A stretch of 64,000 nt of DNA from Alphaproteobacteria bacterium (GTDB lineage: Bacteria; Pseudomonadota; Alphaproteobacteria; UBA2966; CAIVPW01): assembly GCA_016869235.1 (NCBI GenBank), contig VGER01000001.1, positions 54,596 to 118,595 on the forward strand, written 5' to 3'. The position numbers were made by a program. Below are positions 6,001 through 9,000 of the stretch, in pieces; the first letter of the stretch is position 1, and each line of letters begins with the position of its first letter.

Positions 6001-9000
6001 GCTGATGGTGGGTGCATCCGAGAAGGAGGAGATGGAGCAGTTCTACATCGTCAACAGCACCGCGAAGTCGGTCAGAACTGACCTCGCACTCGACCTCTTG
6101 AAGCAGCGCGCGGACAACGATGGTCGGGTTCTCCAGCAAGTCGACGAGCGAGGCGAGCGCTGGAAGATCGTCGGGCAATCGCTGGCTGAGACCCTGAACG
6201 AGCACTCTGCTGTCTGGAAGAACCGCATCCGCTTCCCGAACGCGCCGAAGGAGGAAACCGTCATTCCATCCGCGAGCTTCGTGAACTCGCTGCGTGGTCT
6301 GATTAAGTCGCCGTTCTTCGGTGGGCTGACCACGGAACAGCAGACCAAGTTGCTGGACGCGTACTGACTTAGCATCCGCGAGGCGTGCCGGCCGCCCTTT
6401 GACTCTCCGGACGACTACACGCTCCAAAAGGGTATCGGCGTGACGGCGATGCATGAACTCCTTGTCTCCGTCATCGAGCACGTGCGGTCGGCTGGCGACA
6501 GCGTGTTTGACAAGGACGTCTACCGCGACCTCATGGAAAAGGTTCTCAATAACCTCGAGGCGGACAACGCCGTTGGCGAGAGCGTGAGCGGGTCTGATTT
6601 CTGGCAGACAGCCTCCCACGGAGGCGCAGCGGGCAGCTTCAGTAGCAGCGCCGGCCGTAGGGTCTTGGTCGCGAAGTTGCGCGCGCATCTGCCGGAGATG
6701 CAGGTCGAATAATGGACGTCGGCGGGCGCTACCAGCTCCCGCCGACCACCCAAGCCGGATTCGGAGGCATCACCATGCGCATTCGGGAAAGTGAACTTGT
6801 CGAGCCTGCTCGGTTGGCGATTCGTGATGCTGGCGGCGAAATATCGACCGCTGCCCTCATCGAGCGACTCGCCCAGGAAATGGGCCCCGTTGGGGAAAAT
6901 GCGGCAATCCTTGCCGGGCGCCTCGATACCAAATTCTCCCAAAAGGTACGCAATCTTAAGAGTCACAAGACGCTTGAGCGCACGGGTCGCGCAATAGCGA
7001 CGGGGGGAGGCTTCCGCCTGCTCTAACCAGCGGCACCTTGCGGCGAGTCATTACGCATCTCGGCTCTAACTCGCGCCCGGAGATTTTCGATGGGCGCGAG
7101 TCTTCCCGTCTCTTGCACCTTGTATTGCCAAAATGCCCAGCCGTTGCAGGCGCTGAGCCCCGCCACCGCAGCGCCAACGCTATGAATCGAGCCCGTCACG
7201 TTATTCGAAATGATGGAACCGTCCGCCCGGACTTTTGCACGGGCCATCCCACGCAGGTCATAGAGGAGCGCCCCAGGAGGTAGGAGCCCGCGTTCTACCA
7301 GTTGGCCGAACGGCACGCGCGGCTCGTCGCGCTTGCCGCGCGTCACTTCCAGCGCCGCCGCGTCGCCTCCGACGACGTTGGCGATGCGCTCGCGCGCCAG
7401 ACGCGCATAGACCGGCTCGCGCTCGATGCCGATCCACCTGCGTCCGAGCCGCTTGGCAACCGCGCCGGTGGTGCCGGACCCGAAGAACGGGTCGAGCACG
7501 ACGTCGCCGACATTGGATGAAGACAGCAGCACCCGGTGCAGCAGCGCTTCCGGCTTCTGGGTGGCGTGGGCTTTCTTGCCGTCGGTCTTGAGACGCTCGT
7601 TGCCGCCGCACACCGGCAGCAACCAGTCGGAGCGCATCTGCAGCTCGTCGTTGAGCGCCTTCATGGCGTGGTGGTTGAACGTGTGCGCCGGCGCGTCGCG
7701 GTCGCGCGCACACCACAGCAGCGTCTCGTGCGCGTTGGTGAAGCGGCGGCCGCGGAAGTTCGGCATCGGGTTGGTCTTGCGCCAGATGACGTCGTTGAGC
7801 ACCCAGTAGCCGAGGTCCTGCAGCATGGTGCCGACGCGGAAGATGTTGTGGTAGCTGCCGATCACCCACAGCGTGCCGGAAGGCTTCAGGACACGGCGCG
7901 CGGCGGCGAGCCAGGCGCGGGTGAAGCGGTCATAGGTTTCGAAGTCGGCGAAGCGGTCCCACTCGTCGTCCACCGCGTCGACGACCGAGTCGTTGGGCCG
8001 GCGCAGCTCGCCTTCGAGCTGCAGGTTGTAGGGCGGGTCAGCGAAGACGAGGTCGATTGACTCGGGCGGCAGCGCGCCCATGCGCGCGACGCAATCGCCT
8101 TCGAGCACCGTGCCGAAGTACGAAGCGATGTCCGCCGCAGCGGCAGCCGGGCTCTTGCGCGCCATGGCCCGCACAATGAGTCCCGGGCGATTCTCCGTCA
8201 AGAATCAAGGAGTTAACCATGGTCCCAACTAGATGTTGGGTGTGCGGGACTCGCCTGCTACCGCACTTATTCGGCGGCCGCGGTCGTGAACGGCAGTTCC
8301 GGCTGCAGCGTGCCCTTGATGGCCATGCGCACGGCGGCGAACGTGCGGCGGTGGTGCGCGGTGACGCCGAGTTTCGCGATCGCCTGGCGATGGTCGAGGG
8401 TCGAATAGCCGCGGTTATGTTCCCATCCGTAACCGGGATAGGAGTCGGCGAGCGCATCCATGATGCGGTCGCGCACCACCTTGGCGACGATCGACGCCGC
8501 GGCGATGGAGCGCGAAATGGCATCGCCGTCGACGACGGCACGCGCGGGGCAGGGCAGATCGTCCGGCAGCCGGTTACCGTCGATGAGGGCGAAGCGCGGC
8601 GCGTAGGGCATCGCCGCCACGGCGCGGCGCATCGCCAGCAGCGACGCCTCGAGGATGTTGATGCGATCGATCTCGTGCACGCTGGCGGCGCCGACGCCCA
8701 CCACCGCGCATTGCTCGATGCGCGCGAAGAGCTTCGCGCGCGCTTCGGCGGTCAACGCCTTGCTGTCGTCGATGCCACGCGGCGCGCCGCGCAACGGCAG
8801 GATGACGGCGGCCGCGACGACCGGGCCGGCCAGCGGCCCGCGCCCTGCTTCATCGATGCCGGCGACAAGGCAACCCGCCTCGCGCTCCAGGGCCAGACTT
8901 GGAATGGTCCCCTCCCGCCGCCTATCTAGCACCGGCGGCGGCCGCGGCGTTAGCCGATCCTAGGGCCGCGGGCGCGGCCGCTGCGCCGTCGCGCGCTTGA

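Follow-up and report, generated by a model that had tools for sequence, protein, structure and literature searches.

The DNA considered here is a 64,000-nt stretch of contig VGER01000001.1 (GenBank assembly GCA_016869235.1) from an alphaproteobacterium of an uncultured clade, referred to below as the window, and the element of interest is the short segment that precedes the gene for the DNA methylase CcrM. In the alphaproteobacterial cell cycle CcrM serves as the clock-coupled methylase. Nearly all that is known of its control comes from Caulobacter, in which CtrA is the dominant regulator. In the window the ccrM coding sequence occupies 7023-8165 on the minus strand, with its ATG at 8165, and specifies 380 amino acids and a stop codon. 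The gene for RNase HII, rnhB (8932-8270, minus strand), is its co-directional neighbor upstream. The window gene encodes a full-length CcrM orthologue. The product matches C. crescentus CcrM (PDB 6PBD) over residues 19-370 (E = 1e-149), and the alignment extends through chain residue 365 of 366 and includes the CcrM-specific C-terminal domain. The DPPY motif of the beta-class N6_N4 methyltransferase core is found as FADPPYN in the translation. The best NCBIfam match is the CcrM model, with 590.8 bits, a score that does not reach the strict equivalog cut-off of 830. From the full-length identity of about 65% to the characterized enzyme, the window CcrM is expected to methylate GANTC. It is an orphan enzyme, since its neighbors are rnhB and, past an insert, mutY, and no partner restriction endonuclease is present.

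The spacer between rnhB and ccrM is 101 bp long and holds four GANTC sites, at 8178, 8189, 8202 and 8248. On the coding strand, from the rnhB stop codon to the ccrM start codon, it reads TAA GTGCGGTAGCAGGC-GAGTC-CCGCACA-CCCAACATCTAGTTGGG-ACCATGG-TTAAC-TCCTT-GATTC-TTGACG-GA-GAATC-GCCCGG-GACTC-ATTGT-GCGGGCC-ATG. The plus-strand sites are GAGTC (8178-8182), GATTC (8189-8193), GAATC (8202-8206) and GACTC (8248-8252), all at the positions given in the original prediction, and, measured on the coding (minus) strand, the distances from their upstream ends to the first base of the ATG are 17, 28, 41 and 87 nt. The claimed promoter elements are also present on this strand: a TTGACG -35 hexamer (8201-8196) that matches the consensus at five of six positions, a 17-nt spacer, and a CATTGT -10 hexamer (8178-8173) of the CAnnnT type. 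Site 1 (GACTC on the coding strand, 8178-8182) overlaps the upstream edge of the -10 hexamer, and its last C is the first base of that hexamer. Site 2 (GAATC, 8189-8193) is in the spacer at about -27 to -23, and site 3 (GATTC, 8202-8206) abuts the -35. The distal site 4 (GAGTC, 8248-8252) lies at -87, inside an inverted repeat that follows the rnhB stop, and it is uncertain whether it is part of the promoter. Counterparts of the distal site are found at -87 and -73 in two near relatives (L003 and L001), and its position is less conserved than those of sites 1-3.

Could such a cluster be a functionless by-product of chance or composition in a spacer that is less GC-rich than its surroundings? 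The window contains 202 GANTC sites (1 per 317 bp), so that 0.24 are expected per 75 bp, which bears out the chance estimate made originally; the composition of the spacer itself predicts 0.36 per 101 bp. For an interval named beforehand, the probability of at least four sites is 1e-4 to 3.5e-4, even when the spacer bases are shuffled, and the ccrM upstream cluster is the densest GANTC cluster in the window. On the other side, 27% of random placements put four sites within 75 bp at some point of a 64-kb stretch, and GANTC is described as generally enriched in alphaproteobacterial intergenic DNA (Gonzalez 2014). The statistic of a single window therefore does not decide the question, and the argument rests on the comparison between loci.

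For the comparison, one genome per GTDB species was scanned. This gave 80 ccrM loci with 61-85% protein identity, or 81 with the window, of which the nearest relatives, L001-L004, are metagenome-assembled genomes (MAGs) from lakes. For the enrichment count, 79 loci had sufficient upstream sequence and the 120 nt preceding ccrM were used; these counts ignore kinship. The stretches contain 268 GANTC sites, whereas locus density predicts 16.6 and local composition 32.6, an enrichment of 8- to 16-fold. At least three sites are present in 51 of the 79 loci, compared to 0.3% of 3,516 control tiles. In the same stretches each of the seven other palindromic pentamers with this base composition is counted 10-44 times, thus the enrichment is specific to the CcrM target as well as widespread. 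Rhizomicrobium-like loci have up to nine sites in 150 nt, including additional copies that are not homologous. The loci without upstream GANTC are mostly from Hyphomicrobiales (Mesorhizobium, Pararhizobium, Chelativorans and others), where the rnhB neighbor is also lost. Dozens of diverged loci repeat these sites at matching offsets, and the core is more conserved than silent sites, which speaks against a chance origin of the cluster. The range of protein identity and the diverged flanks argue against a recent transfer of one sequence among these genomes, which could have copied an accident. The chance explanation is considered very improbable.

The arrangement of the sites is shared as well. 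The pattern TTGACN-N11-14-GANTC-A-NNN-T is found in 49 of the 81 loci, window included, and in these the -10 hexamer directly follows GANTC. By their labels, the carriers are Rhodobacterales, Rhizomicrobium and Rhizomicrobium-like genomes, Parvibaculaceae, Rhodospirillaceae, several unnamed alphaproteobacterial MAG lineages and the clade of the window. TTGAC and the -10-proximal GANTC are present in all 49 by definition of the search pattern. A second GANTC, which the pattern does not demand, lies 2-4 nt after TTGACN in 46 of them. A third either adjoins the -35 or is found roughly one helical turn before it, and is preceded by a conserved TAAC-N5 element. The resulting TAAC-N5-GAWTC module (8207-8216 region in the window) directly abuts TTGACG in the window, L001 and L003. 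In most other lineages the module is about 10 bp, or one helical turn, further upstream, with an A-tract between in Rhodobacterales.

The bases of these sites are not equally constrained. The central base of the -10-proximal GANTC is A in 26, C in 22 and T in one of the 49 loci, and that of the spacer site is A in 21, T in 10, C in 9 and G in 6 of the 46. It varies even between close relatives, while the G, A, T and C around it are fixed. Site 3, for example, is GATTC in the window and GAATC in L001, with the motif kept. Because the central base varies freely and the outer bases do not, it is the methylation motif itself that is conserved, and this is the signature expected of a methylase target and not of an ordinary operator. 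Between the window and L001 or L003 the 51-nt core is 80% identical, compared to 62-63% for the four-fold degenerate sites of ccrM and 24-32% for the next 50 nt upstream. The N-terminus and the ATG context of the window ccrM are common to the same two loci.

It could be proposed that the sites are methylation-independent contacts for a sequence-specific protein or for RNA polymerase, and that the match to the methylation motif is a coincidence inherited from an ancestral promoter. Consistent with this proposal, the sites hold fixed positions with respect to the -35 and -10, site 1 contributes its last C to the -10, and the flanks show some conservation (such as TGATTC upstream and GANTCA at the -10). 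The proposal does not explain why the central base is free even within one clade when the four outer bases are kept, why extra non-homologous GANTC sites pile up, or why the enrichment falls on the very motif that the product of the downstream gene targets and not on matched pentamers. Contacts of this kind are an improbable explanation of the sites. The segment from 8166 to 8216 is likely to be the ccrM promoter, a housekeeping-sigma promoter with a good -35, a weak -10 and three CcrM target sites built in.

The position of the -10 can be anchored in Caulobacter. The primary start of C. crescentus ccrM has been mapped at 399736 on the minus strand (Zhou 2015), and the S11 dataset of that study lists the GANTC motifs GACTCATG at -16 and GATTCCGC at -9. 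With the G of GACTC at -16, the Caulobacter -10 is CATGAT at -12 to -7 and begins at the last C of the GANTC, and the CATTGT of the window corresponds to this hexamer. The mapped start and the two motif positions validate the -10 assignment, and together with the conservation in 49 of 81 loci they back the -35 and -10 elements originally proposed. The Caulobacter sequence used for comparison was L081, a locus with 97% CcrM identity to C. crescentus, which has the same GACTCATGATTC element and the same rnhB-ccrM order.

When the Caulobacter geometry is applied to the window, transcription is predicted to start at 8165-8166 on the minus strand, either on the first base of the ATG or on the nucleotide just upstream of it. 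The reference point in the window is position 8182, which holds the G of the -10-proximal GANTC, and the -10 ends 7 nt before the ATG. No Shine-Dalgarno sequence (GGAG or AGGA) is present upstream of the ccrM ATG in the window. Given this short distance and the missing ribosome-binding site, the ccrM mRNA of the window is probably leaderless. A gap of 7-10 nt between the -10 and the ATG is also found in L001-L004, L073-L075, L040 and L041, and the leaders are 40-60 nt in Rhodobacterales and about 19 nt in Caulobacter. If the mRNA is leaderless, ccrM would be translated efficiently only from transcripts of its own promoter and not from rnhB read-through.

In Caulobacter, ccrM is activated by CtrA and repressed by SciP, and its promoter has GANTC sites. 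A rival explanation is that CtrA is also the main driver of the window promoter, as in Caulobacter and the Rhizobiales, acting through a half-site at about -50, with the GANTC sites as a minor modulation. The half-site gttaacc reported originally is present, with TTAAC on the coding strand (8216-8212) and the 8-mer TTAACCAT on the plus strand (8213-8220), the element as a whole covering 8212-8220. The (T)TAAC element is kept 5 nt upstream of GAWTC in many lineages. The literature describes CtrA half-motifs as functional in Caulobacter and ccrM as a CtrA target in both Caulobacter and Brucella. A full CtrA box, TTAA-N7-TTAA, was looked for and rejected; it is absent from the window, as had been claimed, and from 79 of the 80 other loci. 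The half-site lies upstream of a good -35 and does not replace it as the C. crescentus box at -38 does. The 8-mer is not kept in L001-L004, the nearest relatives, and the distance from the module to the -35 varies from 0 to about 10 nt. Control mainly by CtrA is thus unlikely, if slightly less so than a set of methylation-independent contacts.

The GANTC sites themselves likely mediate methylation-dependent control of ccrM, judging from their conservation and placement. Which protein would read the methyl marks? One candidate is GcrA, which rides on sigma-70 and activates promoters with GANTC sites that fit YGAKTCK (Haakonsen 2015). The GANTC sites of the GcrA regulon cluster near -20 and from +2 to +30 (Haakonsen 2015). 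The spacer site of the window reads CGATTCT on the opposite strand and fits YGAKTCK; it is less than 40 bp from the predicted start and near -20 (about -27 to -23). Across the loci, the spacer site fits in 33 of 46 (72%), compared to 28% of 762 background GANTC sites, in a count that ignores phylogeny. The -10-proximal and upstream sites do not fit (35% and 11%, respectively). With its beginning at about -27, the spacer site is intermediate in position between the reported GANTC sites of two GcrA-associated promoters, ctrA P1 (-29) and podJ P2 (-24). These features make GcrA a plausible participant at the window ccrM promoter, with the balance tipping somewhat the other way. RNA polymerase is a second candidate. 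Methylation of the site at -16 to -12 would put N6-methyl groups at about -15 and -13, close to where sigma touches the extended -10 region, and RNA polymerase might sense them there directly.

A circuit can be proposed from these elements. Passage of the replication fork would turn the three promoter sites from fully methylated to hemimethylated, and CcrM would restore full methylation. The N6-methyl groups would project into the major groove at the places that RNA polymerase and its cofactor GcrA touch, so that promoter activity would report a methylation state set by the product of the gene itself. Caulobacter ctrA P1 is activated by GcrA and is most active when hemimethylated, and in the literature CcrM acts negatively on its own promoter in Caulobacter. 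For these two reasons a logic like that of ctrA P1 is favored: the hemimethylated promoter would fire, helped by GcrA at the -25 site, and full methylation by CcrM would then damp it, giving a self-limiting pulse in each round of replication. Transcription would start at the AUG or 1 nt before it. Whether the sign of the self-regulation is negative is close to an even call, and a purely positive dependence on methylation would also be compatible with the sites. The original prediction had taken the cluster as a sign of methylation-state autoregulation. The comparative data support the GANTC-bearing promoter that this claim requires, but the autoregulation itself continues to be read from sequence. 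Taken together, the window promoter is probably a methylation-sensing, self-regulated ccrM promoter and a variant of the Caulobacter case.

Several observations weigh against this view. Most of the 49 loci with the architecture come from two clades, and the counts ignore phylogeny. The -10 matches only three of the six TATAAT positions, which is why a generic sigma-70 scan of 7900-8600 finds no promoter. A terminator scan of the same interval finds no intrinsic terminator between rnhB and ccrM, and some ccrM transcription could originate upstream. Almost no GANTC sites are found over the -10 in the GcrA regulon (Haakonsen 2015), whereas a site abuts the -10 in the window. The C. crescentus ccrM promoter is listed with ccrM, ctrA, dnaA and sciP motifs and shows no GcrA enrichment in chromatin immunoprecipitation (ChIP), and the effect of methylation on Caulobacter ccrM has been called minor in a 2024 preprint.

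For Caulobacter, the presence of GANTC sites in the ccrM promoter and a probable self-regulation are already established, and Gonzalez 2014 described ccrM as "most probably" regulated by methylation. In Rhizobia, ccrM is often preceded by CtrA sites (Brilli 2010), and the same study counted GANTC in the promoters of cell-cycle genes and drew no conclusion from it. In Rhodobacterales, whose ccrM tends to be close to the origin, GANTC was examined only upstream of ctrA, and the timing of methylation may matter little (Tomasch 2021). The open-access texts searched do not describe GANTC positions conserved in the ccrM promoters of lineages other than Caulobacter, nor the three-site core promoter, its lack of a CtrA box or its leaderless variant. 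The layout conserved over several lineages, the implied leaderless mRNA and the fit of the spacer site to the GcrA motif were also missing from the original prediction.

The comparison suggests that in many other lineages (for example Rhodobacterales, Rhizomicrobium-like genomes and this uncultured clade) the ccrM promoter lacks a CtrA box and carries the methylase's own target sites at set positions in its -35/-10 core. A broader proposal is that a GANTC-studded sigma-70 promoter is ancestral for ccrM and prevails in the sampled lineages other than Hyphomicrobiales and Caulobacter, forming an epigenetic loop independent of CtrA, and that promoters with CtrA boxes are derived. This is put forward tentatively, and the chances are rather against it. 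If it is true, CcrM, probably together with GcrA, senses the marks that it has itself set at three phased core-promoter sites, and the CtrA-box promoters of Caulobacter and Rhizobiales are replacements that have kept only the -16 site or none. Such a promoter would be a simple and testable circuit, in which replication hemimethylates the promoter and the product resets it, and a concrete case of regulatory rewiring between orders. Since the architecture is also found in cultured Rhodobacterales, the idea is directly testable.

A palindrome, CCCAACATCTAGTTGGG (8224-8241), lies upstream of the promoter, and its 16-mer ACCCAACATCTAGTTG (8226-8241) has all six positions of an NrdR box, a 16-bp element with C4, A6, A8, T9, T11 and G13 (PMC13584703). 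The core CwAnATnTwG is found in 36 of the 81 loci, compared to about 0.7 expected. The palindrome is 30-60 bp upstream of the ccrM -35 and takes the form ACACAACATCTTGTGT in other lineages. Its distance to TTGAC is clade-specific and fixed, at 44-46 bp in Rhodobacterales. In Rhodobacterales and Rhizomicrobium-like loci the 3' end of rnhB (..HHRRSFxPVHNIL*) runs into the palindrome, which is non-coding in the clade of the window. A canonical NrdR operator was rejected because the obligatory second box, with a linker of 15-16 or 26-27 bp, is missing: the window has 1-3 of the 6 positions at start-to-start distances of +/-31, 32, 42 and 43, and a score of 5 of 6 is reached by 0-3% of 35 loci (window included). 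The left half of the palindrome is also a DnaA-box core (GTCCACA) in some Rhodobacterales, and DnaA boxes (TCCACA) were predicted in some Rhodobacterales by Brilli 2010. Reading the palindrome as a DnaA box was rejected as it leaves the conserved right half unexplained. It is doubtful that a single conserved NrdR-type box ties production of the methylase to a repressor that senses deoxynucleoside triphosphates.

Other features of the spacer and the window were also noted. The inverted repeat GTGCGG...CCGCAC (8242-8266) lies directly after the rnhB stop and encloses the distal GANTC. In addition, GAGTCCCG at the distal site is complementary to CGGGACTC at site 1 (8175-8182), about 60 nt away. 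No T-run follows either the repeat or this pairing, and the RNA fold of the 110-nt spacer is unremarkable (z = -1.9). An inverted repeat around the -35, GATTCT-N6-AGAATC, was dropped as it is not kept in L001. The second-densest GANTC cluster of the window has three sites in 29 bp (3589-3617; GAGTC, then GAGTCGATTC). It falls in the small interval that separates the stop codon of a dciA-like gene (3635) from the start of a DsbA/thioredoxin-like gene (near 3553), both on the minus strand. An ATCTAGT look-alike beside this triplet (3557-3617) was rejected, since chance alone should produce several shared 7-mers in 64 kb. An additional GANTC triplet is found at 60775-60808. No other promoter with the ccrM-type architecture is present in the 64-kb window, and GC skew gives no origin or terminus signal there. 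Rfam at a permissive threshold gave only sub-threshold chance matches, which fall outside the interval.

The gene neighborhood is largely conserved. rnhB is upstream of ccrM in 65 of the 80 loci, and also in Caulobacter, and mutY is downstream in 50 of the 80. In the window, the 3' side of ccrM has a 1.7-kb insert (5282-7022) and then mutY, which is convergent. The insert is absent from L001-L003, in which mutY ends about 130 nt after ccrM. It contains a gene with a DGQHR domain split into two open reading frames (ORFs; 5480-5926 and 5936-6367), each under the family cut-off, and two short ORFs (6440-6712 and 6712-7026) without a family match, and it looks like a decayed inserted element. In L081 a gene for the ribonucleotide reductase small subunit (2709-3752), not mutY, is convergent with ccrM, and rnhB is still upstream. 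The labels of some genomes are doubtful. "Oceanobacillus sp. HTM 045" (L039, 70% GC) has an rnhB-ccrM locus of the Rhodobacterales type, and the MAGs labelled "Rhizobium sp. Q54" (L001, L003, L004 and L026) have the rnhB-linked GANTC-type promoter that is absent from Hyphomicrobiales loci.

The closest known system is the ccrM promoter of Caulobacter. The gene and the rnhB-ccrM order are the same, and in both promoters the G of a GANTC is at -16 and its C opens a CAnnnT -10, as in GACTCATGAT of Caulobacter and GACTCATTGT of the window, where the start is predicted. Self-methylation of the promoter has been reported to influence expression in Caulobacter. The two differ at the -35, where Caulobacter has a CtrA box, TCAA-N7-TTTA at -38, and the window has the sigma-70-type TTGACG; the window and 48 other loci have TTGAC and two further GANTC sites at the location of the Caulobacter CtrA box. 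The motifs listed for C. crescentus ccrM include CtrA TCAACACCGGATTTA at -38, a weak DnaA-like motif at -39 and SciP at -79 (Zhou 2015 datasets). The second GANTC is at -9 in Caulobacter, whereas the further sites of the window are at about -27 and -40. In L081, GACTCATGAT is about 19 nt before the ATG and a GAGGA ribosome-binding site is present, while the window has neither leader nor ribosome-binding site.

Promoters that are under methylation control with GATC sites of the Dam methylase in their core elements include IS10 transposase pIN and dnaA in E. coli. They share with the window promoter the location of the methylation sites inside the -35/-10 region and a strength tied to replication-coupled hemimethylation. 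They belong to another methylase family, motif and phylum, and in the window the regulated gene is the methylase itself.

The GcrA/sigma-70 promoters ctrA P1, podJ P2 and mipZ (Haakonsen 2015) resemble the window promoter in a different way. They are housekeeping-sigma promoters with a GANTC near -25, as the window promoter probably is; its site there fits YGAKTCK, and its weak -10 would suit a cofactor that promotes open-complex formation. The window differs from them in the extra GANTC that abuts the -10, where promoters of the GcrA regulon are reported to have almost no sites, and Caulobacter ccrM stands apart from them in having no GcrA ChIP enrichment.

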